Assembly (NCBI GenBank): GCA_001244265.2
Contig: CDLV01000004.1
Coordinates: 1,488,001 to 1,552,000, forward strand
DNA length: 64,000 nucleotides
DNA from: Microbotryum violaceum
Lineage: Eukaryota
Direction of reading: 5' to 3'
Of this stretch, positions 29,517 through 58,620 are shown in pieces. The notes under the pieces are model-generated. The model saw nothing but the letters and a program-made list of their open reading frames with translations, did not search any database and was not told the DNA's origin. Position numbers and translations under genes: made by a program. Every line of letters begins with the position of its first letter. Position 1 is the stretch's first letter.

Positions 29517-29754
29517 GCGAGGCGAGGCACCTCATCCCTGGAAGGGAGTAGAAACGTTCGGTGTAGGTTCGTAAGGTGTATGGCAGTGCATGTATGTATA
29601 TGTAATAGCAAGCATTACCAAGGCCAATAACCCAAAGATGGCCCTATACCGACCCCTCTCTCGCAAGTTTTTCAGTTCAAAACCGAGAAGCTGATCAAGA
29701 ATTGCAAAATTACCCCCTACCAAGATACCTCATCCCACACCCCTCAACCTCCCT

Positions 29755-35587: not shown

Positions 35588-35853
35588 TGTAAGGCCGGTG
35601 GCCTTACAGAAGGATTGCGAGTACTGGGCCGATCGACTCGTTGTATTCGTTGTCCTTGAAGAGGTATTGTAGACTGTATTCTGGTTTCAGGATCGGTTTG
35701 AATGAATATGTTCCTCCAAGAGGGAGAGAGAGGACCGAGACTGAACTACACAAAAGGGGGAAACCGGCCAATAATGGTCCAATATTTGGTTAACCGGGTT
35801 TCGGCCAGATTCAGTCGTTGGTCATGCGCGTGCGAGGCCGCTCGGGCCTCACA
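35588..35853 (-). repeat. 5' LTR of Gypsy element, followed by a T-run instead of a tRNA PBS
   Basis: Direct repeat of 21659-21924; the minus strand continues TCTTTTTTTATTGG. Confidence 0.95.
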
Positions 35854-37068
35854 TAGCCTCTCCAGAGCGCTCAGCGTCCTAGGAGGACCCCCGAGAGCCC
35901 AGCCGGAGGCGCGTATTGCCCGACTGGACAAATTTTGGGCCTCAGATGGGTCAAAATCGCCAAGGCGCGTACACATGCGCGCGCAAAAATTATGGAGGGC
36001 ATAAGGCAGCTTTTGCCCTATGAGGCCCGTAGGGCAAGTTTCGGGATTCCATAAGGCATTTTGTAATGCCTCGATAAGAATAAAATCCTTAAGGCCTCCG
36101 TAGGGCTTCCCTAGCGCCTCCCTACGGCGGGGCCATAAGGATTGCCCCCTAGCGCGCGCATACCACCGTAGTGCTTTCATACGGCGGCCATCGGAAAAAT
36201 CCTTCAGGCATCGGGGTTGGGGAGCCCTATGGCGGCCGTCGTGCAGCCATATGGGACCGATAGGGATCGTTTTATGGCTCTATAAGGACGGGCCATATGG
36301 CACACACAGGGATGCCGTATGGGCTCGATGAGGTCACACTACAGTAGAATAAATCTGCTGCCATACGGAAGCCATGGTTGTCTGCCCAAGAGTCGCGTTC
36401 GGTCGCAGATAGTACTTCGGTCTACAGGGCTGATCATTGTACAGTGGGTTTCCACCCTTGTCACACAACTATGTTTTCTTGCATTCTCAAGCTCAACATC
36501 GCGTACGAGGCCGAGCAGCCTCCGAGGGGCCACTCGGCCACTGGGTGCTTGTCTGCGGCTTGCGAGTGGCTCCGGCCGTGCCCGGGGGCGGGGGCTGAGA
36601 CCGACCGGTTGTGAGAGAGGAGGCGAGAGGAGGCGAGAGGAGCCAGCTGGAGCGGCCCTGGCGGCTTCGGGGAGCCCCACCCTCTCTTTTGTTTGCCCAT
36701 TTGACAATCTTGGGCACAACACACCTCTCGACAGTGAACACCATGTCCGTTCAGTTGAGGGACTTGGAACAAGTCATGGAGAATGGTGGGTGCTGATCAA
36801 CTCAATATTTATTTATTGATGCTCAAGGTCGTAGCTTGAGAGTGTCTTTCCCGCACAAAATTGGGTTAATTGCACAAATAACCTTAACCGTACGTATTAA
36901 GGTCAACGAGCAGCGAAGTTTATTTAATTATTTAGATTTAAACGTTCAACAACTAAACACTAACGACGTCATGGTTCCTGGCCAACCTGGGTGGTAGCGA
37001 CTCTTTGCGGCACTCGGACCCATGCCCGGCCGTTGGCTCGCAGTCGCGTTGACGTGAACACTTTCATC

Positions 37069-39620
37069 ATGTCATCATCCTCATTGCCATCATCCACAGA
37101 CTTTGTTCTGGAATGGTCCTCTCAGCGAGCTTCTGCCGGCTATGTGTGCCGGTACTGTGGTGGCGAGCGCATGTGGTATCGTCGCGCCGTTCGACACGCC
37201 GCAACCAAGAAGCACCTCGACGCGTACAACAATCGAGCCAATCCCGCTGTCAATTGGACCAACCGGTTACTGCAACCCACGCCTCAGGCGCTCTCGAGCA
37301 GCGACGAGGCGGACTTGGTCGATTCCAATCAAAATCCGGCAGAGACCGGAACAGTAGGCCACTCTCTGCTTGCTGTCGCTGGCGAGATCATCAAGTCGTC
37401 TGAAAGCGTGCCTGCTTCCAGTCCGTCCCCGCCAAGTGATCACGAGGATTCCGTTCTCGACCACGCCCTCTTCCTTCCAGAAGGCAATTGCTCGCCCTAT
37501 TCCCAGGGCACTGGCTCCAAGTCCGACAGTGAGGTCGAGATCGATGGCGGGGCGGAGGAAGAAGAGTCGGATGACTGGGTTAAGACTTGGGCCACTGCGG
37601 GCTCCACCAGTGAGTGGGAACGAGCAATGATGCAATGCCCCTCGTAATTTGTCCACTAACGCAAGTATTGCCCAACTTCTGGGCTGTAGCTGTGGTGACA
37701 GGCAGCCCCGCGATGCCCACACGGCTGGGCATGCGCAACTACACAAGCGTACCTGATTTGTCGCATCCCTGGTATCCCTTCCCCAGTCAGAATGTGCGCC
37801 AATCTACTTTCTTTGCTCCGGAATCACGTGATTGGCCAGAGCTGACCCCCTTTGCGAACATAGATGATGATCATCGTCGTGTTTCTCAGATCCCACAAAC
37901 GCCGGATCGGCGTGCAAGAGCTGGACAACATGACATCAGCAACTTTGCCACTCGCGCTTGGTGCAATTTGGCGCACCGGAGATTATAGAAAACGAGCTAA
38001 ATGTCACTAAAAGTGCGCTTTTGGCACTAAAATGCGCTAAATGGCACTAAATTGCACTAAAGCGCGAGTGGCAAAGTTGCTGATGATGCTTGCATTTGCC
38101 AAGGCCTTCGACGCGCAGGGTCTTCCTGCGGCGTCTTCCGTCAAAAAGTTTCTGGCCAACTTGGAAAAAGAGATTCCCCTCTTCAAGCCCCGCCAGTATA
38201 CGAAGGAGGACGGACGCTCTCTTCACGTGGTGTCGCCTCGCGATTATGTTGCTGCGGTAGGTCCCTGCCATTCCGTGTCAATGGTCAAATGCCTTTGACT
38301 GAACCGTTTCCGGGAACGAACAATTCTGCACAGCATTTTGCAACACCTTCATTGGCCCCTCTTGTGCAGCATTATCCCGAGTTTCAGCCTTCTCAAGTCG
38401 ATTCCGCCTATCACACTCGCCGCTGGCTCACTGACCCTCCTCCCAGATTTTCGGCCCCCACGGCCCGCGTCAGGGGCGATGACTGCTTTGTTGACGAGAT
38501 CATCAAGCTCAGGGGTGTTGATGATATGCACTGGTTCGTCGGCCGCTTCGTTTCCTTCGAAAGCAAGGTGCACGCTTTCGTTTGCTTTGCAGCCATCAAG
38601 TCTATCTTTCGGGTTGAGGTCAAGCTGCCCGCTGCTGGGCGTCAACTCATAAAGTGGCCACAAATGTCCCCTTTGCGATGGTGCCTGGTACCTGTCGAGC
38701 AGTTCGATCATCACCCGCAGTTGGTCTTGACGAAAAGCGGCCTTGTCCCGACCGAAGCGTACAACAAGAACCTCCCGTTCCGCCACAACCTGCTTTCAAA
38801 CATTCCGGCTCTGTTGGTGCAGGGTCGTAGTGATCTCCTCCGACATGTGAGCGGTGTCTTGTGGTCTCCTAGCGGTCCTGACAAAATTGAAACTCTTCCC
38901 AGATCCATGAATCCCAAAAAGATAAAGCTACTCTAGGTCGTACCATCAATTAATGGTACAAAGGCCAACAGGTTGCCATCACGGAAGGGCACGTGACCTG
39001 GTGGAGTATACTGGTGCGTATATATGAAGAGCCCGCCTCCACCCTTGATCCTGACCCGCGCTTGTAATCACCATACCAGTGGCAGGCGATGAAGGCGCCG
39101 AACACTTCGAACCTTAACGATTCCAAGGCCAACAGCTTCGCGAACAAGCTCAAGCGTTATGGTGACAGCCTCGCCGAAGACGCCGCAAACGCACTCCACG
39201 CGGGCCGCTACAAGAGGAATGGGGGGTTCGATCATCAAGCGTGGTGAGCTTCATGCTTCATGGTGAGATACATGGCATAATCGAATATTCTGACACTTGG
39301 TGACTTTTTGGGCGCGTACAGGGTTTCTCTTTGACACAGTCACGGCAAAGATGAAGCGACACTCCGGCATCCGGACGGCCCCTCAAAACACACTCGGTGA
39401 CCACGCGCTACAAGCCGTCTGCTCAGAATTCATCAAGGACTCGGTGAACAACCTCAGCTTTTCCAGCCAAGTAGCCGTGAATGGCGCCCTCAATCCACCA
39501 CATGCCGAACTTGGACTGACGAACGATCCCCCGGATCGAACACAGGACGCAGTCCAGGAGATGGGTGAAAATTTGGGAAAGGCAAGGAAGAAAAGGAGGA
39601 CGGAAGACCACCAAAGATGA
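37069..39620 (+). pseudogene. Transposase-like gene of the EnSpm-like element, interrupted by a MITE
   Basis: Zn-finger-like CRYC..H..H, WYPFPS and FATP..L..HYPE..W..P..FVDE segments, recalled as typical of basidiomycete CMC-type transposase N-termini. The catalytic core was not seen. Confidence 0.55.
37934..38085. mobile_element. 152-bp MITE, copy 2
   Basis: Near-identical to 8904-9055; interrupts the reading ELDNM|MLAFAKAF. Confidence 0.92.
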
Positions 39621-40482
39621 GGAGCACATCAAGGACGGGCAACCCTAAGCAAATTGAACAAGCTCTCTGGAGCATTTGAGGTGTGCAAGGGGACTCGGGC
39701 GCGACTTGGGGTGGAGTCGGGTGGACCATGGGTGGGGCTTTCTGAGACATATAACGGGGTTTTTTAGACTTGTATCAACATGTTTTTAGTGTTTGCAATG
39801 AGTGTTGCTTCGTGTGATAAGTCTAAAGGAGCCAGAAGACAATATCTACCTACAGCACCTGGTCCAGCATTTACTACAGCGTCCACCTGGTCTCCTTATT
39901 GATGCCCTACGTGTACCACATTGCGTCCATGCTTCTACATTAGGGCCACCCTATCGTCCCACTATGGCTTCCTTCGGGAGTCTATATCAAGCCGCCCTAT
40001 GGCTCGCACGTGTTCATGCCCTATGGGCTGGCTATATATGGGCCATAGGGCTATTTGCCTAAATGATTAGGAAGGCCGTATGCCATGCCAAGGCCATATG
40101 GAGCCATAGGGATGCCTTAAGGGTGCCATAATTTTCGCGCGCGCATGTGTAGTCGGGGGTGGACAAATCAGGGTGCGCCGGTGCGGGTGGGGGGCCTAGG
40201 CCCGTAGGTGCCAGTGGACAAATCTCGGCCGATTTCAGCCACATTCGGCTTGGTGCGGCAAAGTTTGCCGACCCTCAAGAGCGCGCGGGAGCGCGCGCGA
40301 TTTTTTATTTTATTTTTATTTGAGAGTTCATTAACAGCATAATTATATTAATACCTAGAAATCTTCGGAAAAGAGAAAAGTCGGAGGGAATGCTGTTACA
40401 CACACTGGCAGAAGCCAGCAGTGTAGGACTCATTGACCCTGAACCAGGATCAACCATACCCACTAAAACCCCCTTTGGTGTC

Positions 40483-43129
40483 TTACAGAGACACTAGGCG
40501 ACCCTTGGACTCCTGGATAGAGGCTCGAAGCCCCTCGAACTCCGTTTTGGTGATTGGTTCCAAAAGATCCGACGAGAATTGACGACGGCGACAGAGCTTC
40601 CAGATCGAGTGAAAGAAGAGGACTCGTAGTTCGACAAGTTGGCGTTCCGAGCAAAACACGGCCGGGCATACAAAGTCCACAAAGACTGGGTGGGGGTTGG
40701 GGACAGAGCAGACCAGAGGCGCCGGGCAAATGGGCAGCCGACCGCGAGGTGAACCAGGCACTTGGGTGCTTCCGAGAGGCACATCACACAGGAGGTAGAT
40801 CGATTGTTGGGATGTGGGCTGGTTGGGGAGGCGACTTGGCTTCCCGGATGGAGGGACCCCAGGGAGAGAAGGTGGCCGGTATCCTCGGCATCCGAGTGAA
40901 CCCGGCGAACCTTGCGCAAAGTGTTCCACCAAGCGTTCCAGCGTTGCTCAGGCAGATCAAATACCTTCTGGCGTCCCTTGGGGGAGATAGGAGGGAAGAT
41001 GAAGACTTGGTGGTGTTTGGACGCGTTCACAAACGAAGACGGGGTCATCACCTCACCATCGGGCCCTCGAAAAAGCGTCGGGTTGACCGAGAGTCGTATT
41101 CTGTGGCCCGCTGGGAAGTAGAGTACGTGCGTCGCCATTGCTCGAAGTTCCGGCTCTTGGAGAGTTCCGGGGGATTGAGCGTGGTCACCGAAGCCCAGGC
41201 TTCGAAGTATCGGACCCAACGAGCAGGAAGAAGTTTTGTCGTTTTTCTCACCGCATGGTCCCACTTTGGGGGAGGATGGCAAAAGTAAGCCCACCAGATC
41301 CAGATCCAAGGGCGACGATGCTGGTTGGGGGCCGGTCTGGACAAGGTGAAAGGGGTTGGTTCGTTCGGTGCCTGGAGGCGGATGCGGATGTCGAAGAGGT
41401 GGCGTGTGAAGCAGCCGTCCGGGGCCCGGAGCTGGAAGACCCACTTCGCGTGATCAATCGCTAGACGTCGAGGCAGATCAATCAAGCCGAAGCCGCCGTG
41501 ATCAAGAGGGGTGCAGAGGCGCGACCGGGAGACCTTCGGACGTCGCTGAGTACCATCCGAAGCTCGACCGTGAATGGCGAGCATGGCGGCCTCCTCGATC
41601 TCCTTGACAACGCTCTTGGGGGCGGGAAGGAATCGGCTGTAGTACAAGATCTTTGTGTAGCAGTAGATGTTGATGATCGAACACTTGGCTGCATATGGGA
41701 GATTGTACATCGGAATCGAGCGTATCCGAGCGATGGTCGAGGCCTTGACATCTTCCCAGCCCGCATCCTCGGCGATCTCCACCCCGACCTGAATACCAAG
41801 GTAGCGAAACTGCGAATCGCTGAGACGCCAGGTCCCGAGATCTGGGGCGCTCGACCGATCCCGAAAATCTCCAAGGGGTAGAGGAAGGATTTGACGTTGC
41901 TGAGCTTGCTGGCACTTGCCCGTTCGTAAAGCTCGATCGCCCGATTGAGGTGTTCGAGGTCCGAGAGGTTGTGGAGTGCGCAGCAAGCGTCGTCGGCAAA
42001 AAGGAGTTCGCGAACGTTTTGGAGTGCGCAGAAAGCGTGGTCGGCAAAGAGGAGTTTTCGAATGTTTTGGAGGCCCGCAATATCGATGCCCTTGACTCTC
42101 AATCGAATCTGACAGGCAAAACCTTCGATCGCCAGAACGAAGAAAGATGGAGCAAGAGGATCACCTTGCCGAACGCCCGACAGGATGTCGAAAGCGGCAC
42201 AGAGCAAACCGTTGAGGAAGATCGAGGCGGATTGGTTGGTGTAGGTCGCTCGTACCATTGGCGGGCTTTGGGGCCGAGGCCAACGGCGCAGAGGACTGCA
42301 TCAAGGTACGGGTGGGAAAGACGATCGTAAGCCTTTTCAAAGTCCATCACCGCTAGCATGCCAGACACGGGTGTTAAGCCCGGAAGTCCAGGGTCCATGA
42401 GACATTGGACCTCAGCGATGTTCGTGCCGATCCAACGGTTCGGAACAAAGCCACGTTGGGTTGGGCCGATCAGGGACTCGAGCAAGGGAGCGAGGCGCTG
42501 GTTGTGGGCTTGCGAGATGATGCGCTCGTCCGCATTGATGAGCAATATGGGGCGTTTGTTCGAAAGCTGATCCCTCTCGCCGCGTTTGTGGATGAGATGA
42601 ATGTGGGCAGTGTTGCGGGGAAGAGGTCCAGGCTGACGGGCCTCGGTGGGGATCGAGTTGATGACGTCTCGAAGAATCGGGCCAGTGGCCGGCCACGTAG
42701 CGCGATAAAACTCAACCGGGAGGCCGTCAGGCCCTGGCGAAGAGTTCGACTTACACGCCGCTTGAGCCTTTGTCATCTCCTCCAACGGGTACGCTTCCTC
42801 GAGCTTGAGTGAGTCCGCGGGGAGAGGCGAGTTGAAGCGAGGCCGTCGATGATTGCCTTCAGGGCCGCGTCATCGATGGGGCGGTCTTCATAGACCCGCT
42901 CGAAGTAGTCGCTGGCCGCTCCAAGCATCGAATCAGGGTCGGAATGAACAACATGGTTGACCGTGAGCGAAGGGATCAGGTCGGATGCTCGCACTTTGCG
43001 CAGGCGGATGAAGATGGAAGAGGGACCCGCCAGAGATGGGTTGAGGCGGGACTGCAGGGCCGTGCCGTAGCGCGAGTGGTCAGCCCTCTCTTGCTCCGAC
43101 CCGCCACGACGGAACCGAGCGAAAGTCCG
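40483..43129 (-). pseudogene. LINE ORF2, reverse transcriptase part (frameshifted)
   Basis: SPGPDGLPVEFY, RPILLIN, DFEKAYD, GVRQGDPL, LLFADD, RYLG, GGFGL and CVMC..HL..C motifs. Confidence 0.92.
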
Positions 43130-46100
43130 TGTAAGGCGCGCGCCTTACTACGGGCCACAGGTATTAGAAATAGTGATCGCGCGCACCTAGCTTCTTCAGT
43201 TCCCTCCCCATCGGGCTGACACCAGAAGCTAGGCGAGTACTGGTGTTCCATATCTCAGCACTCTCGTATATCGGGCTGACACCAGAAGCTAGTTGCAATC
43301 CATATAACTTGCACCTGTCAGCTAGGTCGCCAGTGAGGCTCGAGAGCGATCTCGTGCCTTTCACTTTTTTTTTGACAACGTCGAGTTCATTGGTACCCCG
43401 ACGATACGGCCTACGTTCATCAGGCCCGGCCGTAGTCGAACCATCGAACCCATCGACTAGCCCAGATCGGTCGAGGCAAGCCGATCCCACAACCATAGCA
43501 CGCAGACTCCCAGCTCCAGCACAGCCCAGCCCAGCACTGCCCAGCACGCCCAGCACGCCCAGCAACCCCAGCACGCCCACACACGCACCGCCTTCGCACG
43601 CCTCACCAGCCGACATCGCACTGTCCCGCGCACCATGCCCACGCCCACCGCCCCCAGCCACAGCCCCACGTATAAACCCAATGACCCTCCCCAACTCCAT
43701 AGCACCTCAATGGAGGCCTTGCGCGAATACTTCATGCGCCTGGACTTCTACAACCGTCGCATCGCCCGTACACCCATCACGAGCAACTACGATAAGATCA
43801 AGGGGGCCGGTATGGGGTTGCAGGTCTTTGTGCTCAAGACCTGGTTCACCCAGGGCCTGAGCAAGCACCTTGCAAAGTCATACGCTCAGTCCAAGTCGGA
43901 ACTGATTCGCCGGGCTGTACCAGTGGACTTTGTCTGGACCCAGCTCACCAAACTCCACCGTCTACGCCAAGCCCCAGGTCACGACATCGACGCCTTTCAG
44001 GAATCTCTGATCAGATGCGCTCACTGCAAATGGAGATTGGCTTCTAGGTCGTCTCCAACCAAGAAGTGGCCAAGCTGGTTCTCCTGGGCACCAATCCGGA
44101 ACTCTGCCGGATCCTCCGCACCCACATGGTCTCGTCGCTGGCTGGCTGGTCGGACCTCTTGCTCGAGAAGCTTGCCCTCGACGCTCTGGTGGTCCCTACC
44201 AGTCCGGAGGCCGCTGAGGTTTTTAGTGACGCACACACGGACCAACCTCTCAAGTTTGATTACCAAGTCTTTGAGAGGATTGGTCGCGAGGAATGGAGCG
44301 TCATTGCGCAGCGACGCCAAGCCATTGCGACCCAGGTCAGTGCGCTACAACAGCGCCCCACGTACTCGCGACCCGCTGCAGCCTCGGCTGCACCCCACAT
44401 TGCGACAGCTGCTACCGGCCATTCCCCAATCACGGGTGGCCCCCGCCGCGTTGCCCGACTCACCGTTGACGAGCGCGCATACCTGGACCAGAGCCACGGA
44501 TGCTATTGCTGCCGCACTCTCAACGCTGACCACATCTTGCGCAACTGCCCCCGCTACTTGTCACCCATGGGAGCGTCCGCCACACCGTTGATGCCAACGT
44601 CGACCGCTCCTGCGCCTCGCCCCGGGCCCCATATGGTGGCGGCCATTCGGACCTTCCAAGAAACTGGCGATTCAACCGTGTTCGCCGGCCTCAGCAGCGA
44701 CTCGGAGGACGACAACAATCCTTTGTACGCACCGCATCCCTTTCCCCCCTTACCCGTCTCCCTAGCTGGCGCTCATGGTACTCTCCTTGCCTCCACCCTA
44801 GTCAATTCGGGATTGCCTCAAACATTTCTCAGTGAGGAGCTTGTTCAGCGACGGGGTTTGGAACGGCGCGCCCTGGAACAGCATTCAAAGTACACCCTTG
44901 CAATGCAAAACCAAGCCCCCACTGTCTTCACCTGCACGCACTTTGTTCGAGTCCTGCTCGAGCTGGCCAATGGGCTCTGGGCTGCAGGACCAACGTACGC
45001 CGAGGTAGCGCCCCTTGGGAAGGACCTTGCAATCATCTTGGGAGGCAACTTCATCTATCGGCACAAGATGGAGCTCGGCCTCTTCCCTCAGCCACACCTC
45101 ACCTGCAAAGCCAACCCCATACACGCTATAGACCTGCTGGCGCTGTCGTCCCAGCCGTGCGCTGCCGCGCGGGTTGCCGCAATTGCTCCGGTTTCTGACG
45201 ACGAGAAGCAGCTCCGCCTTGCCGCGCTTGACCATCGCCTCCGAGCGGACTTTGCCAACCGTTTTCCTGCGGATATCCCGCCTGTACACTCGTACCAATC
45301 CCCGGTGCAACACTGTATTGAGCTTGACACTCTGTCCACTGTTGTCAACCTTCGAGGATACCCCATCCCAAAGAAGTATTGCAAGGCATGGTACTTACTA
45401 CTACAGGAACATTTTGCAGCCGGTCGCTTCTGCCCCTCTTGGTTGGCATACTCGTCACCCTCGTTTTTCATCCCAAAGAAGGGCTGCAACGTGGATCCCA
45501 CGATCGCCCCGCGCTGGGTGAACGACTACTGCGAGCTCAACAAGCACACCATCAAAGACCTCACGCCTCTGCCCTTGCCGGACAACGTTCTCTCAACGTG
45601 CTCCAATGCGCAATTCTGGGCCAAGATTGACATGACCAACTCCTTCTTTCAGACCAAGTTGGCGGAGGAAGACATCCATAAGACGGCCGTGTCCACACCT
45701 TGGGGTTTGTACGAATGGACCGTCATGCCCATGGGCCTCTGCAATGCCCCTGCCACCCACCAACGACGTGTCAACAAGGCACTCCAAGGCCTGCTTGGCA
45801 CCATCTGCTTTGTCTACCTCGACGACATCACCATCTTTGCGGACACACTGGAGGAGCACGAGGCCCGTGTTTGCCAAGTCCTGGAAGCGCTGCGCCGTGC
45901 CGAACTCTACTGCTCGCCAACCAAAACCAACCTTGCCACTGCGGAGTGTTCGTTCCTTGGCCACATCATCAACCGCGCCGGCGTGCATGCTGATCCCAAG
46001 AAGATCCAGCGCATAGAAGACTGGGCACTACCCAAGATGGTCAAGGAACTCAGGGGTTTCCTCGGGCTGGTGCAGTATCTTCCGCAAGTTCATCCCTGGC

Positions 46101-47348
46101 CTCGCTGAGCACACCGCCACACTGACTCCCTTGACACGCCAAGGACTCTCATCTATTGCCACACTCTGGACACCCAACGAGGTCCGCCACTTCAAAGCCA
46201 TCAAGGCCATCGTCACCTCACTCGACTGCCTTCGGCCGCCCAACCACTCCGCCAATGCCGCTCCGTTCTGGGTGATGACTGATGCAAGCAATCAGGGAAT
46301 TGGTGGTGTCCTACTCCAGGGTCAGGAGTGGAAGATGGCGCGCCCCATTGCGTACTGGTCCAGGCAATACATACCCGCTGAACGCAACTACCCCACACAC
46401 GAGCAGGAACTCCTTACCATTGTTGAAGCACTCAAGGAATGGCGCATTGACTTGCTTGGCGGCCACTTCCACATCCTCACTGTTCACTCCACACTCGAGC
46501 ACTTCCAGACCCAGCGCACCGTTCTCTCTTGCCGACAAGCCCGTTGGCTGGACACCCTGGCCGAATTTGATTACAACCTTCGATACCTGCCCGGCGAGGA
46601 CAACATTGTAGCCAACACCATGAGTCGATACTCTTTCACCGACCCACTGCCCACCCTAGTGGCCGCTGTCTCCCGCGTCAAGCTTTTGGATGCTGTCAAG
46701 CAGCAGATCCTTGACGCGTACAAGACCGACCCATTCTGCCAGCAAGCCATGTCTAACATTGGCTCGGTCACATCGGACTTCAAGATTGTTGATGCATTGC
46801 TGTATTTACGGGGCCAGCTTATCATTCCATCACTAGCCCCACTCCGTGAGTCAATCCTTCACGATGCTCATGATGCGCAGGGGCACCTAGGTGATATGAA
46901 AACGTACCGAACCGTTCAGCAGGCATACTTCTGGCCCAACATGTCCTGGGATGTCAAGCACTACGTCCAACAATGTGATTCTTGTCAGCGGACCAAGGCT
47001 TGTACCACTCGCATTGCTGGCAAACTCCACTCGCTCCCTGTCCCGACGCGACCCATGGCCGACATTGCCATCGATTTTATTGGACCGCTGCCCGCCAACA
47101 AAGGCTTTGACCGCGTGTTGATAATCATCGACCGCCTGTCGGGATACGTCCATTTGCTCCCTGCCTGCAAAGCTGACACCGCAGCGGAAGTTGCCGCGCG
47201 CTTCCATGAAGGATGGCACCGCTTTTTTGGCCTCCCTCAAAGCATTGTCTCGGACCGGGACAAGCTGTTCACAAGCAAGTTCTGGACTGCCCTGCACAAG
47301 CGCCTGAATATCAAGCTCCAGCTCTCTTCAGCGTTTCACCCGGAGACC

Positions 47349-47689
47349 AGTACTACAATGAAGATCACAATCAAGTGAGCCGATACTTTATCTAGCACCT
47401 GATCGCTTATTATCAAGTAAAGGTAAAGATTGTAGTAAGCTATAACACTCTAACAATGCCTCAATTGCTTCCATTTTATTTTATTAATCAATTATCATTC
47501 ACATTCTTAGTACTAACAACTATGATTTACCTATTTGGTACATATATCTTACCAGTTTTTACTGAATTGTTTGTTACACAAATGTACATTACTAAATTAT
47601 AGTTTTTCTTTTCTTTAGTTTTTTGTCTCTGTTTAGTTTTATTTTTATTTCGAAATAAAAACAGCCCTTTTTTGTCTGTTTTTATTTTA
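47349..47689 (+). other. NUMT: about 340 bp of AT-rich mitochondrial-derived DNA inside the Gypsy integrase
   Basis: An abrupt AT-rich block splits the IN motif FHPET|(DG)RSEKTNK and contains atp8. Confidence 0.92.
47456..47602 (+). pseudogene. atp8: Complete mitochondrial ATP synthase subunit 8 ORF (nuclear copy)
   Basis: 48 aa [48 protein letters not shown], with the MPQL.PFYF.NQ signature. Confidence 0.95.
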
Positions 47690-48033
47690 GTCGCAGCGAG
47701 AAAACGAACAAGACTGCCTTCCAGATTCTTTGAGCGCTCGTCAACAAGGAGCAATCCAACTGGGCGGAGTGCCTTGCTGTCTGTGAGTATGCCATCAACT
47801 CGTCTCTCAATGTCGCTACCAGGAAAACCCCCTTCGAGCTCATGCTTGGCTACACGCCCTCCCCCGCCCCGCTTGCCCGTGTCGACGGTGATGACAACTT
47901 GCCGTCCGTTGAGGAGTTGCTTGCGCTTCGATTCCAAGCCTGCGAAGACGCCTGGGACCAGCTCGCCATTTCCAAGGTTCTGCAGGCAGCACAGTCCAAC
48001 AAGAAGCGCCAGGATGAACCCTCTTGGGCCTTT

Positions 48034-48234
48034 TGAAAGGCACGAGATTGCTCTCGAGCCTCACTGGTTCCGATTCCAAACCGAAAGGATCAAACGGTGT
48101 AATTTGCAGGCAAAGAAAGACTACTAAAAGGACTAAGGTCAAGAGACGCGGCGGCGCCGCGCGCAAGGGCAAGCGTGAGGCCGCAGAGGTCGGCTCGAGG
48201 TCGTCGTGAGGCGTAAGCGGAGCGGCACCTTACA
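48034..48234 (-). mobile_element. Solo LTR (201 bp) of a related Gypsy family inserted antisense in the integrase
   Basis: Minus strand TGTAAGG...CCTTTCA; the last 34 bp match the host LTR 3' end. Flanks are CCTTT/CCGTT, a TSD with one mismatch. Confidence 0.8.
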
Positions 48235-48897
48235 CCGTTGGGGATCTTGTTCTTCTCGACTCAAGTGATCGCCGAAAACGGCTCCACACCCGCAAGCGCC
48301 GCGCAGCCAAGCTCATGGACCGCTTTGACGGTCCCTATCGCATTGTCAAGGCCCAACCGGAAATCTCGTCCTACACCCTGCAACTGAACGGGGATGATGC
48401 AGCGGTACCATTCTTTCACACAGGCAAGCTCAAGGCCTACTGCAAGAACGACACAGCCCTGTTCCCCAACCGTGAACCTGCAAGACTGGGCCCAGTGGAT
48501 GTAGGTGGTGAGCCGGAGTAAATCATTGAAGACATTGTCGACGAGAGGATCCGTGCTGGCAAGCAGCAATACCTCGTCTCGTGGCTCTTGTGGCCGTCAG
48601 ACAGCAATTCATGGGAGCCTGCCAAGGCACTGGAGGATCCGGAGGCATTGGATAGGTGGGAGCGTCGGAACAAGGAGTAGGATTTTTGACCGGAGGAGGG
48701 GATTTGTTTCAAGGCGGGGAGAGTGTAAGGCGCACGCCTTACTACGGGCCACAGGTATTAGAAATAGAGATCGCGCGCACCTAGCTTCTTCAGTTCCCTC
48801 CCCATCGGGCTGACACCAGAAGCTAGTTGCAATCCATATAACTTGCACCTGTCAGCTAGGTCGCCAGTGAGGCTTGAGAGCAATCTCGTGCCTTTCA

Positions 48898-49872
48898 GTC
48901 CGGGCCAGAGCCTGCAGCTTGGGCAGCAGGCGGTGTTTGGTGGACGTCCAAGCTGCTGTTGGATTGTTGGGCATCTGGAGGAGGGCTTTGTTGTAAAGGG
49001 TGCGGACAATGGAGGTGAGGTACTCGCAGGTCGCGTCACCCTCGATCACATGCAAACCCAGCTTGAATTTGCCCGGACCGATGTCAATTGCGCCCGGCAC
49101 TTGGAACCATGCCACAACCATTGAGTGCGTCGATTTGAGGACAGGAGCCCAAATTTTGTGATCATGGAAGAAGTTGACCCAATCAGGCAAGACATAGATG
49201 TGTTCAAGGCGACGGCACGTGCCGGGTGCTGAGTGATTCATTGTGGCTTGTCCTTTGGGATGATGGAGCCGATAGGTGTCAAAAAGATTGTTGGCCGTGG
49301 CAAGGTCGCGCATCTCCTGACCCCCATAATTCGTTCCGTTTTGGTTCTCCGAATCGAGGGGCTGGGACTCAACACAATTCCAGTCCCCCCCGACTAGGAG
49401 CGCAGGCAGCAAGGGTTCATCACATACAACTTGTTGGAGGGCGGTGCTGAGGTGTGAGAGGAAGCATTTTTTGTCTGGCTTGTCGGAGGAAGGCGCGTAT
49501 ATTGATATAACCCGGACTTTTGAATCACCCACACAAAAGGTGGCGTCGGTGACTCAGTCCGGGAAAGAGAAAGAGGCACAAAGAGTGTTTGGAGGCAACT
49601 CAGGATCAAAAGTAATGACCACGGAGTTGCTCTTCCAAAGTATGGCAGTGTTGTTGAAAGGAGTGAAAAGAGCGGAGAGCTTTAAGTCTTGGCACTCCTA
49701 AGTCCACTGGGCCACCCTTTTGGGGGAAGGTCGGCCAGTTTTGCTCAGGAGAAAGACGTCGGCGTTATGGGAGCGGAGATTGGAGAAAAGAGAAGCATGC
49801 TTACAGTCTTCATTGATTGACTGCACATTGGCAGCAACAAAAGACACATTCGGGAGTTTAGTTGTGCTCATC
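48898..49872 (-). pseudogene. LINE ORF2, APE endonuclease part
   Basis: AANVQSI, DVFLLS.T, SIYAPS, LVGGDWN, R.LEHIY and STH.MV motifs. Confidence 0.88.
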
Positions 49873-51264
49873 GTCTTGGTCCATAGCGTCTTCCACGTCC
49901 TTAGGAGGTGCTTCTTGGTCTTCGGCTTCTTTGTTGGCCTCATCGTCGGTGTCAGCGTCATTGGGTTGGGGGGCTTGGCTCGGAGGCTTTGAGGGCAGGC
50001 GCAGTGGGAGGGGCTTCACGAGTGGCTGGCTTGGAGAGGGCGGCAATCAACTTGGATCGAGTTATGATTGACTTTGGCGTGGCCGGAGGAGGGCTTGGGG
50101 ATGGAGAGGTGGTCTCTGAGCTGGGGGACTCGGAGGATTTTTCAAAGAGGGAGTAGGCAATTCCCTGATTGGAGGCAGGCTGGGGGGCAGGAGGAGTGGC
50201 AGTTTTGCAAGGGAAATTGAAGGAGAACTCGGGGCGGGCATTCTTTGACAGAGAATTGGGCTGAGCTCTGTTGGACAGATCTTCAGTCTGGGCAGCCAGA
50301 TCCTGTTCTACTCGACGTTTTTTGGTCGTGCGGTTGTAGGCAGAGGCCGGGGAGATCGACTTGGACACGGCGGCGGGGGCGGCGGTGGTAACGGTGGAGG
50401 CTTGCGGGGCACGTGACATGGGGGGTCCCTGGGGGCTCGACGCATGACAGGCCGGGCAGTGCTGGGTGGCGTGCGAGGTGCTCGCGCAGGACTTGCACGC
50501 CGGGGCGATGGGGCAATCGGGGCGACGGGGCAATCCTTACGGACGTGAGCCGCGGAACGGCAGAAGACGCAGTGGCGCATGCCACCGGTGATCCTCAGTG
50601 GGATTCGCTCAGTGACACCGTCACGAGCAATAGAAAGTGAGGCAGGGGGCAAAACATCTATATCCTTAAGGGCAAGGATAAAGTCGTACACCCCAGAGAT
50701 GTGTTTCGTCTTTCCAATGTATTGGATGCGACGACGGAGGACCGTGCCATAGGCAGCGATCTGCTCATCAAATAGGCAGAGGCCCTCGGGGTCGGAGAAA
50801 AAGCCCGTAAGGGTGCATTGTACAACACCTCCTCTAGTAGAGCTGTACAGCTTCTCGACTTTGCACAGAGTCTTGCCAACAGTGAGGCCGTTGGCCACCA
50901 GGGTGTCGAGATCAGCGGCCTTGGGAAAGCGGAGGCCGCGCTGACCCTTGATGACGCATGGCATTGCGCCGGTAAGGCCAGGGTAGCATTTGTGAAGCGC
51001 GAGGAGGACTTGCTCGACCGAGGTTGAGGGTGGGGTGTTGATGATGGCACAACTCTCGATGTTGTGCATCAGTGGATGGGCAGCGACGGCAGTCGAGACG
51101 TTGGCAGTGGTGTTGCCGTGCTTCGCAGCAGAGCGGGCGCCGACCGCGGCGGAGTATGATTTGGTGGTGGTGGCGGGGGCTTGGCCGGGAGGATCGGGAG
51201 GGTCAGGGCGAAGAGGTGGTATAGCAGCATGGCTGGCGTTGTTGGTGTTGTTGTTGTTGTCCAT
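49858..51264 (-). pseudogene. LINE ORF1 (nucleic-acid-binding, two CCHC knuckles), frameshifted
   Basis: CVFCRSAAHVRKDC and CKSCASTSHATQHC lie in different frames. Confidence 0.82.
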
Positions 51265-52190
51265 CCAATAGGAGTTTCCTTTTTCAAGTCGGCCAAATCG
51301 GCGTGCGAAATTAAGTCACCCCGAAGAGGGGGAGAGGGAAAGGAGAAAGATTTGGACTAAGAGCGTTGGCGTGCATCAACAACGGCAATTTTAAGTAAAA
51401 GGCGTAAGATTGATTTTGTGGTCGATACACCGGCGCGAAACACTGTGGTCTATACCGAATCAACAACAACGGCTCTAATTGTTCAATATTTGCAATGTAA
51501 CCTCTTGGCTGGTTGAACGAAAGGTCCGAGTGCGCACGTCTCTTGCCTCCCCCACCGCGTCGCGTCGTCTGTGCCATCATCGTCATCAACATCCTAGGCT
51601 AGGCTCTCGCTTCAGCCAACTTCGACGAGATGTATCTAGGCAATCCGGATATCGAGCTCCTTGACGATGATTTCGAGCGAATGGCACCCCTCTTGGACGT
51701 GAGGGTGTCTGAGCTTCTCGCCTTCCACTTCGACAACCCGGAGACCTAAATACAGCTTTCGTGGTCGACAGACGAGCTTCTCGAGTTTGATACTCTTCCT
51801 AGGCCGTTCGATGCTTGGAGGGACAAGTTCAAGGATCGTGGAGCAATCAATGCGGCACGAAATCAAGGTTGCCGGTCTATTGCCATCGCTGGGCACCGGC
51901 TGCCTTTCGGTGTCGAAAGGATTTGGCGGCATATAGACTACGCTAAGCGCATGCGTTCGATCGTTATCAGTAGCCAAGAGTGGACGAAAAGTTATCTGGG
52001 TGTCAACATCGAAGATCAGCCTCTCATCGTCAAGGCTCTGGAGGTGCTGCCGTCATTAATCGTTGAGGAGCAATATACTCCCTCAATGATCCTCGGGTGT
52101 AGCGCGTCCTTGCGCACGCTGCTCGATTTCGTCGGTAAGTAGCCATTTTGTTTGCTTGTTCGATCGCGTGATTGACTGGGACTATTTTTC

Positions 52191-55100
52191 GTGCTTTTCC
52201 TAGGGACAACGTGGCTTGGAGAAACTGCGATGGACGTTGCCATCGCCAGCGTACTAGCTTCATCGCGAGTAGAAGCGTCAACAGCACCTGACAAGGTATA
52301 CGGGGCATTCCCATCCGACCTCATGGCGATTTTGGTCGCGTCAAAAAAACATCACCCTGACTCTCCTCAACGTGATGTTCTCGACAAATACACCTTCACA
52401 TCACCACTTGTTCCCTATCGAACTCTCGCCGATCTTCGATCTTTCGTTCGAGCACGCCCTCAATCGATCTGGTTTCTCCTGCTCTGCTTTCGCAATCATT
52501 GGGCAATGGCACGTGTTGATGTTGAACAAAGGACATGGTCGGTTTTCAACTCGCTCTCGAATGTTCGGATCGACGAGATTACTCGTAACTCGGCACTCGC
52601 CTTATTTGACTACCTCGAGCTACGAATTCTCAACACTGAGCCGAAGCAAGACCACATGGTTCAACAGGCTGACAGCTTCTCGTGCGGACCAGCGGCTATC
52701 AATGTCGTCGAAACCGAACTTCTTTTGGTTCCACCTTTTTCTGCCGGTCGCGCTCATATCTCTCGCATTCGCCAGTTTCACCGACTAGCAACATTCGCAA
52801 TCAAATCTCAAGATCTCACCCATGACTTGCCCGCGCCCATTGCCGGCATAGACAAGAACGATTTGGACGTTGGTGTGTTCGAGGGGATGGCCGAGATGGA
52901 GGTTGACGAGGAGACATGGTCCGATATATGCTTCAGCTCAGATTCCGAGACGGACGACGATTGCACCACGGACGACGATTGCACCACAGACGACGAAACT
53001 CCGAAGCCGGGGGAATAATCACAGCACGACGAGCCAGACTAGCCAAGGAGCATCTTAAAGACATCGAATACTCGAAGGCTCTCCCCGCAGCATTTGCTGA
53101 ATTCAAGGCGAAGGTCAAGCAGCTCTGCCCAGGTTCGGACGTGAAGATTGCGAATCCCAGGACGGTACAGTGCGGTCGCTGTCGTACATATCAGAAGATG
53201 AAGACACGGCACGGCGTCACTCGCTTCATGAGGCATATTAATCAAAACCCGCCGTGCACGAACATGCGCAAGATCGACCACTACTTTGCTGTTCGACCGC
53301 CCGCGGGAACGGCTGTCCGGTCGCAAGGCAAAACCCTGGAAGATTCTCCCCCGTGTCCCGGCCTGACAGGCAAGCGGGTAGAGCGATACCTCTCAAAGAG
53401 CTCTGCTCGAGGCGGAGGTGCACCATCTCGGCTAAAGCTCATCAAGAGAAGGTTCCCAAGACTTGGCAAACGTGTGCTGACTCCCTCCGAACACCGTGAG
53501 ATCAATAATCTGGAAGCGAACGAGTGGATGTGGGTGAACGATCATTCAGCACCTCGAGTGAACAGTATCGACTTTACCAAGATCGGAGTGGAGTCTCAAT
53601 GTGGAACAAATCCGCAGCCTTGCGCCAAATGCAAGGCACTGCTTCGCACGAAAGCCTTTCCACAGGCGTTATATCGGCCTCGGGCTGTCGGACCCACAAT
53701 CAAGTTCACGAATAAACGATTGGCTTCCGTCGACGCTCGGATGTCAAAGGTTTTCAAGGAACACCAAGGTCTGGAGGAACTCTTGGGGACCAAGGATGGC
53801 AAGATCTATCTTCGTTACGCCCAAGGTTTAATTGTCGGCGAGCTTGCTGGAGCAAATATTCTGAAAGGTATGGCAAAAGTTGCCGTGATCAAGCATAGGC
53901 GAAACACACAAGGCAAGGACATGAAAGGCTATGTGCGAGACGAAGCTTTGCTCGGCTTTGAACACGCGCTGGCTCTGGCATCTCCCACGGCCTTGCGCGT
54001 GGTGCAAAAAACAATTGGAGGAATCTCGATGCGCACACTTCAGTAAGTTTCAGACCTGAGCTATCCGTCACTCCTTCAAGCTACTGACAATTACAAACCT
54101 CTCAGACAACACCGAGCCACATTTGAAAAGCCCAGGTTCGGCTTAGATGAGCCCCACATGCAGCGCGTTGTCCAAAAGATCCTTTCGGATGGAAAGACCT
54201 TCAACCTGCATGTCGACGACACGAAACTGCGACAAGTAATCAGGACAACACGAATTTATTCGAAGGACAAGGAGGCGGAAGATCGCCTGCGCGGCCAGAA
54301 AATATTTCGTCACGAGCTCATTGGCATGGTTGGCCCGCCAATCGTGTATGAAACCACGCGGGAGCTCGAGGGTATCTTTCGGGGACCGAACCCTCCGATC
54401 GCTGGCACCAAGGTCGGTGACTATGTCTGCGCGGCGCTTTAATTGGTTGCTCATTTGCTGGCGCTTCTGTGAATAGGTTCGAGTGTACATGCTTGCGCCA
54501 AACGATGTCTCTTGCCCAGCCCAATACCTTGCCGCATTCGTGATTGGCGACTCGACGAGCTCATCCGAGGCTGTGAATGAATTGGAATCAGTTATTCAAT
54601 TCCTTTTCAACGCTGGGCTAGGTCATCTTCTTGCCTCCATCTCGGCGGATGGGGCGGCAAGCGAAGGCGTCTTGCAGCGCGTCATGGCAGAGCGACTTGG
54701 CGGCGATGAGGGGTATACCGGAGAGGGGAACCGTCGGCGAGAGCTCGCACATGTCATTCCATCTCCAGGTCCCGACAAAGTCTTCCCAGCCATTCGACTG
54801 GCATCCGTCCAAGTGGGCAACACTCCAACGTGCTTCAATCGGGACGAAACGCACTTGAGCAAAAATCTCCGCAGCGCGTGCGATTCAGGCGCCAGGGCAA
54901 TATACGGCGGCACCGGATGCATCGGATATCGTGACCTGTTGACGCTGCTGGATGTCGAAGAGTCGGCAAGGACCTTGTATCTACGCGATGTGATTGGACG
55001 TGATCGTCAAGATGACAATGCGACGCATCGAGCGTTCTCCGAAGCTACTCTCTCGCTTGCTTGCCGACTTCACGAGGACGGCAAAGTCGATGCCGATGCC

Positions 55101-56002
55101 ATCGTCTTCCTCTTTCTCTGCGGCGAGCTTCATGACGCGATACAAAATAGGTCATTGCAGCCGATTGAACGTATCGAGATGTTATTAACGGTTCGTTATA
55201 CGTTTGCGGGCTGGTTGACCTTCGTGCGCAATCGTCCCGGGTACAACGCGCAGTCCTTTGTAGCCAAGGAGACCCTAGATGGTATGCGAAAGGTCGTCGA
55301 TACAAACATCGCCCTTATTCGGAACTACCGCGACTTTTGACCGGAAGAAGCGTTCATACCTTGGCGACATGGTACGGAGATGGTCGAGCCATGCCTTTGA
55401 AAATCGGCTCTCTTGTCTGCTTCGGATTGAAACGAGGCATCATACCTGTCAGTTGTGACGCCAGCAACATCGGAGAAGAACAATTGTCCATTGGACTTGG
55501 TTTGTGCATCTCACTGTAGCTAGCTTACTGCTTTGCAGAGTGACTGACATCGATTTTACCTCTCGTAGTACGTTACATGTATGCCAAGGCCACGTCAAAT
55601 CATTGTGACAGAGCGGAGACCGACTCCCTCGCATTACTCTCGAATGTCGTCCTCCAAGAATTACGAGTTGTGAGCAAGGGCCGTTATTCAACGCATATGA
55701 TTGACGGCACGACTCGCTTCTTCGGACTCGATGCTCGACAAATTATTCAATCCTTGGAATCATCCTCAACGCCCGCCCTCACTCTCGCACCCCAGGATTC
55801 AGTTGCATACCTCGGGGAGCGTGTCTTCGACTTAAGCCAGCAGGCTGAGGCCAGGTTCTGTTTTCTTCGACGCTACAACGGATTACGGGACGCTTCTGTG
55901 TCCTTGAGTAATCAAATGAAGGGCGTGAAAGATGTAGGGTCAAAAAGGAAGGCAGCAAGTGCAGATGAGGAGCCTTCGGCAAAGCAGAACCGAACCGGCT
56001 GA
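52191..56002 (+). pseudogene. Ulp1/C48-like protease domain followed by P-element/THAP9-like DDE transposase (introns, frameshift, stop)
   Basis: NHWAM..FNSL..QQADSFSCG (protease); HVDDTKL, ISADGA, RDETHLSKNLRS (D-x2-H), DRQDD.A..AFS and HGTEMVE (transposase). TGA at 55338-55340. Confidence 0.72.
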
Positions 56003-57703
56003 CACGCGCGCGGGCTCAGCCGATTCGGCCCGAGCGAAAAACGTCCGGACGGCGTTTTCGCGATTTTTGGAGATGTTTTAGAGCATTTGAAGCAATTCTA
56101 GAGCTATTTTTCGAGGCGCGTAGATGGACTGGACATTTTGGGGACCTTTTTGGCCGAAAATCCCAAAAAATAGTGGACAAATGAGGTCCAAAATCGGCGA
56201 TTTTCCCGGATTTTACCTACGCGCCTCAGGCTGGGCTTTCATGGGTCCTGTCCTAGGTCTCTCCGTGAGTTCCCCAGAGCCCTCAGCCTCTCTGCGAGTG
56301 CCTCGCGTCCGCGCCGCTTACCGTTCCGCACCGTCGACACGTTCTGGGACCAGCTCGCTGCTCCAGCACTGCCACCCTCTGCCAAGGGTCAGTTGGTCCT
56401 CCAACATTGGATCCTCATCCAAGCGATCCGTCGCTCACTCAGCAGTCTCCCTTCATCAGGACCTTACAGCAGCCTGCTGCTCTCCAGAAACCCTCGACGC
56501 ACGCACGCCTGCCACGCGCTCGAGGTAAGTGTTCAGCATACGCTCGGCTAGTTGCACGACGTACTCATAGCTCACTTGCCCTGCAGTAGTTCTCCGCGAC
56601 CTCTCTGTACGATCTCCACCCTTTCCTGGATCGCCCTAGTTGGGCGCACCAAACTAACGCATAGCATCCCATAGGCTACCTCCCGCGGAGTCTATCCGGA
56701 CGCTCGTTCAATTGTGTTGAACGCCTGCGCTACGCCTCGCAAAGGTATGCTACGCCGTGCCTCTGTCATAGCTGCCCTGTTACTTATCATCCCCGATCGC
56801 GACGCCTCGCAAAGCGATCTCTCGGTCCTTTAAGCTTCCCGCCCACCTTCCCTATTTACACTTTAATGTCTCTTTCTTACTTTGATACATTTCAATAGTG
56901 ACCGAGTTGTTAGTTACGACACGGTCCCTTTCGGTTTCTCAAGCCCCGCTGCAACATGACATCACCTCTCGCTAAAAATCACTGTGCAAGCGGCTTTGGA
57001 GAGTTGACGATGACTGACGAGTGCCAGACGTGCCGGGACGGCTGTCTCAAGCTGGCGCAATCGTTCGAAATGCCCGGGCTGTGCTCACTGCTTCGGCGGA
57101 TGATACTGAGAAACAGGTCTGCATGGTTTTGAATTGGAATTCCGGAACATCAAATGAAGATGAATGCATGTCGAAAGGCAGCTTGACATGTCGCAATATT
57201 TTTTCGCACCAAGGCCTTGCACACACTCTGCCCACTTGGCGGCCCTTCTGGTCGAAATTGCTAGGCGCGCCTCGGGAGCTTTATGAAACAGTCCGCCTTT
57301 TCCGAATTGGGCGTCTAGATATTCGCATTTTGCTGATCGGCGGAGAGTCAATAATTAATGTGGGATCCGTACAAGGATGAAAGTCTCAAGATTTTACCCA
57401 CATCCACCCTTAATACACCCTTAATACCTATCTTGGGCACCACACCCACGTAGTGACGGTAGGCCGATTTGCTTCCAAGTGATCATTCGTCACTAGGAAT
57501 AGACATGCCTGCCGGCTCGATGCGAAGCGGAAGGATGACGACCAGTCGCGTGTACCTCGATCGGTTCCATGAATCGACATCGGAAAATGGGTTTATGCCG
57601 CCAGCAAATGGTGCAACTACCAATTACGCGGGCGCGTTTACCCCCGAAGCTTGACGCATCTACCCAGGTAGTAAGGTGCAATGTAAGGTATGCGCCTCTG
57701 ATG

Positions 57704-57812: not shown

Positions 57813-58620
57813 TTTCCCCTTACATGCAAAGTTCACTTACAAATGGTGCATTCTTCGTGCAAGTTTGGTGCGTTTGCTCCGGAAGAAAGGTGCGTTTACC
57901 AATTAAGGGTGGTGCATCTACCACATCAGGAACTTACCACTTGCCGGTGCGCGGCTAAATCTGTTCAGATGACTTTACCGTCTGAATCGTTCTGAATCGT
58001 TCTGAATCGTTCTGGATCGTGTCTAGATCCCCCACTTCGTCACGCTGAAGTAGCAACTTGTGCACTTCGCTGTCACGGTCTTATACACACTAGTCAGAGT
58101 CTTGTACCACACGGCAAGCAGTAGAGCTCACATCCTGATGTAGTCATTGCAAACACAGCCAAATTTTATCCAGCAAGTGCGTGCCATTGATTGCAGTATA
58201 CACATGATATACTGACATTTCAAATGCTATATAGAGGTTCCTTTGTTCGTCGGCCCACCCGCCGCATGTTGCTCCGCATCACAGCTCCCTCAGATCTTTG
58301 AGGATACTGACAAAACTCTCACCAATGCACCGATGCAGTACAGAAAAAGCACTGAAAGAGGTTTTCGGCTTTACATTGTACAGAAAAGCATCGAAAGAAA
58401 ACTGGCCCTCGCGGACCGACTTGAGCGCCATCCGTCACCTTTCGTCCATTGGGAGGCAGAAGACGAAATGGTGATATCAGGTGACAGCTATTGAGTGATT
58501 ATTTCTGGCTAAGAGAGTGTAACAACGTCCAACAGTTTTCGCTCCGCGAGGCCAAGAAGGGTTGGCCGCGCCTGCCTGCGTCGAGCCCGCCCATGTGCGC
58601 GCCTAGGGTGCCTCGTGCTA

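Follow-up and report, generated by a model that had tools for sequence, protein, structure and literature searches.

A P-like transposon family of Microbotryum violaceum that probably joins an Ulp1-like protease and a P-type transposase in one spliced gene

In Drosophila P transposase, guanosine triphosphate (GTP) bonds to the terminal G of the element and is held by D528, K385, K400, V401, S409, F443, D444 and N447, and the THAP domain is reported there as restricted to animals (PMC7776569). The C/D-x2-H signature is described as common to five superfamilies (PMC9587614). For fungi, a Pfam-based survey gives 17 Repbase entries and 11 transposase-bearing P elements (PMC5751038), and the rust P elements P-1_MLP, P-2_MLP and P-1_PSt, with duplications of the target site (TSDs) that are 8 bp long, are listed among the Repbase deposits of 2011 (PMC3164196). 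A C48 protease is reported as carried by Ginger1, Mutator/MULE and oomycete Crypton DNA transposons (PMC2836005, PMC3212892). Here we report on an element at positions 35884-56249 of a 64,000-nucleotide stretch of Microbotryum violaceum (assembly GCA_001244265.2, contig CDLV01000004.1, positions 1,488,001 to 1,552,000, forward strand), which is called the window below. A preliminary description, made from the sequence alone, had read it as a fungal transposon combining an Ulp1-like protease with a P-element/THAP9-like transposase. We conclude, with a probability of about 0.88 for identity and architecture, that the family has one spliced gene encoding, from N to C terminus, an Ulp1/C48-like cysteine protease, an acidic linker, two zinc modules in the place of THAP, a helix-turn-helix (HTH) and an RNase H fold of DDE type that is interrupted by a P-type helical insertion domain, and that it represents a branch of the P superfamily in fungi. 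In the literature searched, which did not take in Repbase, subscription papers and supplements, where such an account may exist, neither a fusion of Ulp1 with a P-type transposase nor AGGACCC ends were found described.

The window copy is a decayed copy of a cut-and-paste DNA transposon of about 6.5 kb. Its terminal inverted repeats (TIRs) of 32 bp (35884-35915, + strand; 56218-56249, - strand) are complementary at 28 of 32 positions, and both read AGGACCC inward. They are flanked by an exact 8-bp TSD, GTCCTAGG (35876-35883 and 56250-56257), which occurs only twice in the window, once at each flank of the element. Both the imperfect TIRs of about 30 bp and the exact duplication reported beforehand therefore stand. 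The span between them is a different matter, as the element accounts for only 5,049 of its 20,366 bp and nested insertions make up about 15.3 kb. The element's own DNA consists of 35884-35971 (+), which aligns with the first 88 bp of uninterrupted copies and has a subterminal GGACAAA at 35926; of 40152-40300 (+), placed by the same alignment, with GGACAAA at 40161 and 40216; and of 51438-56249. Near the right end, a motif search found two subterminal GGACA motifs (56131-56181, +) on the same strand as those at the left, which makes the two ends asymmetric. The closest copy, L088, has 6,466 bp, and compared with it the window copy is 1,417 bp shorter by an internal deletion, whose junction (55387-55389, +, 3-nt overlap) lies just behind the last catalytic Glu. 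The coding region covers only 51630-56002. It is broken by two stop codons, at 51747 and 55338, and by a frameshift of 1 nt near 53015; because of these lesions and the deletion, the window copy is dead.

The gene lies on the + strand. Exon 1 (51630-52134, predicted ATG at 51630, stop at 51747) encodes, by comparison with homologs, the conserved N-terminal part of the protease module, and removal of intron 1 (52135-52203, 69 nt, GT..AG) restores the W-L-x-E/D motif at the protease start. The Ulp1/C48-like domain (52212-52800), located by Pfam and homolog comparison, has His at 52497 (HW), Asn at 52548, and Gln at 52662 and Cys at 52683 within Q..SCG (52662-52688). It is followed by an acidic linker with an 18-nt repeat (52950-53015), where frame analysis places the frameshift, and by the Cys/His clusters (53171-53632), namely zinc module 1 (53171-53257; (C/H)xxC..H..C, unlike the THAP pattern; ligands in 40-42 of 45 homologs) and zinc module 2 (53351-53632; C..C..CxxC, also present in rust and Rhizophagus relatives). 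A helical region with the P-type HTH (53741-54042) is supported by PF12017 matches in homologs and by a structure alignment beginning at model residue 37. Splice signals predict intron 2 (54043-54105, 63 nt, GT..AG), in agreement with gene models P0001 and P0002, and intron 3 (54413-54476, 64 nt, GT..AG). Between them, exon 3 (54106-54412) starts the RNase H fold and carries the first catalytic Asp in VDDT (54212-54223; DD in 77-78 of 80 homologs). On the basis of fold and conservation, exon 4 (54477-55388) holds the second Asp (SADG, 54642), DxxH (DETH, 54843), the P-type helical insertion domain with DRQDD (55002) and HDxxQ, and Glu at 55377 and 55386, with a premature stop at 55338. Frame analysis identified a C-terminal coding remnant (55390-56002) with an intron (55500-55568) and a stop at 56000-56002. 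All motifs named earlier (protease H..Q..C set, Cys/His clusters, D, D, D-x2-H, DRQDD and E) were found.

The claim that protease and transposase form one coding region probably holds for fuller copies, but the window copy is not one open frame. In L081 (752 aa), L085 (758), L099 (839) and L107 (674), a single stop-free frame runs from the protease through the Cys/His clusters to the helical region with HTH. The protease is found in other copies as well. The 63- and 64-nt introns connect this frame to the catalytic exons, and database gene models are spliced alike. Where intron 1 is expected, a single contig of run X2 jumps over 69 nt with ends of intron type, and about 71 nt are skipped by contigs of runs X3 and X4 inside the part deleted from the window copy; that these runs are RNA is our guess. 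Introns 2 and 3 are not among the joints shown by the contigs of runs X1-X4, and transcript support for the spliced gene is thin.

One line of evidence for the assignment to the P type is the fold. An AlphaFold model of the homolog P0002 (mean predicted local distance difference test score 75.8) matched Drosophila P transposase with a Foldseek E of 1e-13, compared with 1.3e-4 for Hermes and 8.4e-4 for RAG1. With VIA, the model aligned to P transposase 6p5a (chain 137-565) over 395 of 442 residues with Z 26.1 and a root-mean-square deviation (rmsd) of 3.0; the next match was Tn5 with Z 10.9, and the HTH, RNase H and insertion domain of the model all superposed on P transposase. The named Atlas neighbours are P/THAP9 clusters, and the P-element/THAP9-like nature of the transposase proposed before is thereby upheld. 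Two other superfamilies were rejected: hAT, as Hermes reached only Z 8.6 at rmsd 7.2, and MULE, whose TSDs are 9-11 bp long, as ISCth4 reached Z 8.5 and no exact duplication of 9-13 bp was found among the end pairs. Zisupton elements also carry Ulp1; no KDZ/CxC Pfam match was seen in the scans of homologs and window, and no KDZ chain was identified among the fold-search matches. The catalytic candidates are nearly invariant in the homolog alignment (D138/139 as DD, 77-78/80; D261, 95/97; E507, 90/95), as is the DxxH that follows the second D and precedes the E (D 98/100, H 100/100).

With a profile of the transposase core, 706 cluster representatives were retrieved at E<=0.001, and the stricter limit of E<=1e-30 left 186. 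Among 20 representatives looked up, 19 were named, all of them basidiomycetes, and further searches added Melampsora, Puccinia and Rhizophagus. Named Microbotryum proteins show 96-97% identity with the catalytic exon of the window copy. In a scan of 58 homologs, no transposase families of Pfam appeared other than PF12017 (12 proteins, 3 above the cut-off) and PF21787 (one protein); PF21788 had no match in the genome and none in the controls either, and is therefore uninformative. A comparison of P0037 with a phage collection gave no match. The conserved ligands of the two zinc modules are each present in 39-42 of 45 homologs. In a fold search of the zinc region, Foldseek gave nothing at E<=0.001 and the best match (Z 4.0) covered residues 1-85 only; THAP structures were not listed, which does not by itself exclude them.

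The C48-like character of the first module, previously read from its motif set, is borne out by the family protease profile, which matched yeast Ulp1 (2e-15), SENP1 (8e-15) and SENP2 (6e-12) best and bacterial CE proteases at 1.7e-6 or weaker (to 1e-2). The window frame itself matches Pfam C48 at E 9.5e-4 and 19.5 bits, slightly below the cut-off of 20.7. Pfam C48 was detected in 19 of 28 long homologs (14 above the cut-off), and a family hidden Markov model (HMM) found the protease in 53 of 58 homologs of at least 1,300 aa, including 11 of the 14 held out of the profile; the five without a match (1,319-1,448 aa) may be short gene models. His, Asp/Asn, Gln and Cys stand in CE-clan order on an Ulp1-like domain, and the His/Asp-or-Asn/Cys triad is intact in 36 of 45 homologs, the Microbotryum copies having Asn for Asp. 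Protease and transposase are fused in frame across Microbotryomycetes, Tremellomycetes and Agaricomycetes, and the protease was found in 16 of 16 additional Agaricomycete proteins. The ratio of nonsynonymous to synonymous substitution rates (dN/dS) was 0.24 for the protease (200 codons), 0.10 for the core, 0.10-0.31 for other domains and 1.38 for the linker, where only two synonymous changes occur. These ratios, given without a formal test, compare the consensuses of two subgroups of 3 and 7 copies, one apparently mosaic, and suggest that the protease is under purifying selection.

The family is abundant in the host. In the 33-Mb genome (20 contigs), the core exon had 71 matches, the protease region 75, and the TIR pattern 304 (151 forward, 153 reverse), compared with none for the reversed control. 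Whole elements were expected in 40 fetched stretches, and where both ends were present the length was mostly 5.7-7.1 kb. From the fetched loci, a subset drawn from 100 of the 304 TIR matches, 136 distinct ends were picked by the AGGACCC pattern. Tabulation of the 34 nearest end pairs below 10 kb gave an 8-bp TSD in 22 (18 exact, 4 with one mismatch), and two longer pairs, the window copy and a 46-kb pair, also have exact 8-bp TSDs; every exact duplication of 4-13 bp found among the end pairs was 8 bp long. The TSDs are variable GC-rich 8-mers whose profile, SSYNNRSS, looks palindromic, which is partly built in because both ends of each insertion were counted. A search for an excision-footprint pattern in the genome gave 1 site, compared with 7 in the control. 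In 4 of 4 copies of subfamily A, GGACAAA stands on one and the same strand, with three occurrences near the left end and two near the right. In related genomes, contigs of runs X1-X4 join the ends of L084 (1574-8067) across internal deletions of 3.8-5.0 kb and represent more non-autonomous derivatives.

The same organization extends to other fungi. Metagenomes scanned with a profile built from 12 relatives, a Trametes protein first, gave 73 loci. The protease lies upstream in 29 of the 43 loci with most flank, and in 26 of the 30 whose upstream sequence reaches 2.5 kb or more. In 54 loci examined, some near-identical and not independent, AGGACCC stood at the expected distance on the left in 13 of 18 and on the right in 12 of 15 with enough flank, compared with 2 and 1 for the reversed word, so that AGG instead of CA termini are a trait of the wider fungal lineage, as had been suggested for this element. 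Ten elements were complete (6.2-7.3 kb), and four of them (L194, L198, L206, L213) have an exact 8-bp TSD, as has a 1.3-kb derivative (L220). Of 36 AGGACCC ends, 24 have GGACAAA no more than 300 bp away, as a raw count without shuffle control. Deviating ends were also seen: L175 (174-7431) has AGGACAC, and in L205 and L207 no AGGACCC was found and subterminal TCCGGAC motifs are present. The metagenome contig L236 (1-4842) has inverted arms of about 1.6 kb (95%) around a transposase fragment and is possibly a foldback derivative or an assembly artefact.

Several observations weigh against a P-type element with a protease fused to its transposase. The terminal bases are AG..CT, not CA..TG. The fold was computed on P0002, 96% identical across the core, not on the window frame, and its structural identity to the P transposase chain is 14-15%. 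Profile searches of PDB chains gave no match to the P chain at E<=10 and found no transposase, and because of this absence domain-based surveys miss the family. The THAP pattern C-x2-4-C-x35-53-C-x2-H-F was found in none of 58 long homologs. TSDs are lacking in 12 of the 34 genomic end pairs and in 6 of the 10 complete metagenomic elements, the latter as expected if assemblies collapse copies. Two of the 12 genomic pairs, L100 (C2:2087868-2094422) and L116 (C2:2141354-2147897), are inverted copies that bound an inversion of about 47 kb, and they lack a TSD of their own because this inversion swapped their flanks; L101 (C1:1375746-1382328) keeps one L100/L116 TSD on both sides. In subfamily B, GGACA motifs were found in 0 of 4 copies. 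Introns 2 and 3, which join the protease to the catalytic core, are predicted from splice signals and gene models only. Finally, the protease was detected in none of 20 rust proteins and none of 3 from Rhizophagus, and it may therefore be dispensable, although rust models may start too late to include it. An unrooted core tree unites the rust and Rhizophagus proteins in a single clade, next to an Agaricomycete clade that has the protease (99/98); the tree has no outgroup, and both gain and loss of the protease with respect to the rusts are compatible with it. The Rhizophagus proteins P0273, P0274 and P0288, from outside Basidiomycota and with no protease detected, group with the rust clade (100/99).

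Other readings of the element have to be compared with this one. A single TIR pair and a single TSD enclose 20,366 bp, which could suggest one large cargo-carrying transposon; we give this almost no credence, since uninterrupted copies of 5.7-7.1 kb are continuous across the insertion points and every insert is flanked by its own duplication. It is improbable, too, that the family is a separate superfamily sister to P or of Kolobok or Zisupton type, as its RR..YY ends, lack of THAP and distinct DRQDD pocket might indicate. The AG..CT ends do satisfy the Kolobok RR..YY rule as given in PMC9587614, the 8-bp TSD matches that stated for Zisupton in PMC12730594, and a sequence-profile link with the P chain is missing. 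Kolobok, however, requires a TTAA duplication, which none of the end pairs has, and the HTH, RNase H and insertion domain superpose on P, homologs exceed the PF12017 cut-off, and P is the superfamily under which rust elements with an 8-bp TSD have been placed before (PMC3164196). The family has the split RNase H DDE core, the D-x2-H, the HTH before the catalytic domain and the TIRs with an 8-bp TSD of the P superfamily, and we file it there by transposase definition, in the Repbase sense, not as a canonical THAP-bearing family. None of the outcomes that the preliminary description had named as contradicting its reading was observed. It had been called poorly characterised, and the lineage is indeed under-described but not unknown, because homologous rust proteins exist and Repbase has rust P elements, which probably belong to the same lineage.

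The insertions within the element are of several kinds. Comparison with uninterrupted copies delimits a nested, internally deleted TIR element of another, Plavaka/EnSpm-like family (35972-40149, +, 4,178 bp, CACATG..CATGTG ends, TA duplicated); such ends with a TA duplication resemble the description of ESTA (PMC12730594). Inside it lies a 152-bp miniature inverted-repeat transposable element (37934-38085, strand unassigned, CATCA..TGATG ends) with a second copy at 8904-9055, neither showing a clear 2-3 bp TSD; its ends correspond to the PlavakaB-type termini described in PMC12730594. A long interspersed nuclear element (LINE; 40301-51432, -, 11,132 bp), recognised by Pfam and junctions, has endonuclease, reverse transcriptase and zf-RVT domains, an A-rich tail at 40301 and an approximately 5-bp duplication, GCGCG. 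Within the LINE lies a Gypsy long terminal repeat (LTR) retrotransposon (43130-48897, +, 5,768 bp, TG..CA ends, 5-bp TSD GTCCG), identified by Pfam, repeats and junctions. Elsewhere in the window and separate from the main element, a non-autonomous deletion derivative of sister subfamily B (16012-17473, -, 1,462 bp) has the exact TSD AGCTCAGG. The P-like element inserted about 30 bp past the right one of two 267-nt direct repeats (98%, LTR-like), which stand 13.9 kb apart around Gypsy- and Copia-type frames (21659-35854). Inverted repeats of about 557 bp (24789-27959, 99-100% identical, 2.06 kb apart) in Copia coding sequence look like a local inverted duplication. In addition, there are a short foldback element with 153-nt arms and ends resembling the CACATG family (58618-59012) and a 757-aa acidic low-complexity open frame without Pfam match (17752-20025, +), probably a host gene exon.

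The protease is not confined to the P-like family. Longer copies of the nested CACATG family (L241-L246) encode a transposase with Plavaka Atlas neighbours (0.96; 46% of members labelled Plavaka; the recognition score stayed under the bar), and 5 of the 6 fetched stretches contain a protease with intact His, Asn and Cys; the zinc modules and the P-like core had no match in any of the six. In a quick tree that contains no host Ulp1, this protease nests inside the Microbotryum P-like clade (SH-aLRT 99), and the simplest reading of this placement is that the Plavaka-like family captured the module from the P-like family.

By analogy with P transposase (PMC7776569), the zinc modules and HTH would bind to (T)CCGGACAAA-type sites in subterminal position, whose arrangement differs from one end to the other. 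The unlike ends would then be paired, and the DDE centre would excise the element and join it across an 8-bp stagger (PMC7776569). Canonical P elements depend on GTP and cleave their ends with a 17-nt stagger. Positioning of the end, which is a terminal T in the fungal family, may still depend on a GTP-like cofactor. By spacing only, family residues D423 (92/100), Q426 (>=90%, that is, at least) and E504 (91/94) fit D444, N447 and D528 of P, and the invariant DRQDD falls near K400/V401; from base chemistry, the contact could persist with the imino donor of T facing the GTP carbonyl. Deleted derivatives such as that at 16012-17473 would be mobilised in trans.

As for the protease, we somewhat favour tethered deSUMOylation, in which it would strip SUMO off the transposase, or off chromatin or repair factors present at the element, and so ease silencing or transpososome turnover, because links of SUMO with heterochromatin, in organisms from yeast to mammals, and with repression of transposable elements in flies are summarized in PMC9406493. 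A repair role has been proposed for the Ginger1 protease (PMC2836005). A target other than SUMO, that is, ubiquitin, NEDD8 or the element's own polyprotein, is possible but clearly less probable. C48-type motifs also occur in bacterial deubiquitinases, which the profile matched as well (E 1.7e-6 to 1e-2), the Microbotryum copies have Asn where Ulp1 has Asp, and OTU and C19 deubiquitinases are reported in transposons as well (PMC2836005); all bacterial CE proteases, on the other hand, rank 3 to 9 orders of magnitude behind Ulp1 and SENP1/2/3/5. That the protease is captured passive cargo, unneeded for transposition, seems quite unlikely to us. In favour of it, no protease was found in 23 proteins from rusts and Rhizophagus that belong to the same transposase clade, and 9 of 45 long homologs have no intact triad, but the in-frame fusion across three classes, the dN/dS of 0.24 and the His/Asn/Cys still intact after the apparent transfer into the Plavaka-like family speak against it.

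A wider reading, which we offer as tentative and doubtful as a whole, is that a large fungal P clade missed by Pfam surveys would combine P-type chemistry on a terminal T and a rebuilt cofactor pocket (DRQDD) with a tethered SUMO protease as an anti-silencing device, useful enough to move into an unrelated Plavaka-like transposon of the same host. P-type elements look common in basidiomycetes and overlooked, because the survey counts 11 in fungi (PMC5751038), whereas we found 706 representatives and 304 end matches in one 33-Mb genome. Since the ends finish in T, the lineage is a natural test of the generality of the contact between GTP and the terminal G. With relatives that have the protease, others that do not, and a second family that apparently captured it, the lineage can also serve to test why Ulp1 is carried by transposons again and again. 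In addition, copies mark chromosome rearrangement, one pair bounding the inversion of about 47 kb.

Compared with known systems, the family is closest to the Drosophila P transposase (6P5A/6PE2), vertebrate THAP9 and zebrafish Pdre2, with which it shares the HTH, the split RNase H with helical insertion domain, and the DDE with DxxH, together with TIRs of about 30 bp, an 8-bp TSD, unlike placement of internal sites at the two ends, a multi-intron gene and deleted non-autonomous derivatives. In contrast to them, it has no THAP pattern, two other zinc modules, an N-terminal Ulp1 protease and a length of 6.5 kb. Its ends are AGGACCC..GGGTCCT with a 3' T, whereas P has a 3' G and Pdre2 has CAT..ATG, and its invariant DRQDD stands, by spacing only, near the place of K400/V401 in P. 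The Melampsora and Puccinia proteins share the D(R/K)QDD, DxxH and E..EH motifs and zinc module 2; unlike the Microbotryum family, no protease and no clear zinc module 1 were detected in 20 of them, whose gene models may be short. Ginger1 also has a C48 protease fused to a transposase, but the transposase is of another superfamily and the protease is C-terminal there, not N-terminal as in the fungal P-like family. Kolobok shares the C/DxxH signature and the RR..YY termini, here AG..CT, but its TSD is given as the 4-bp TTAA (PMC9587614), whereas that of the fungal family is a variable 8-mer.

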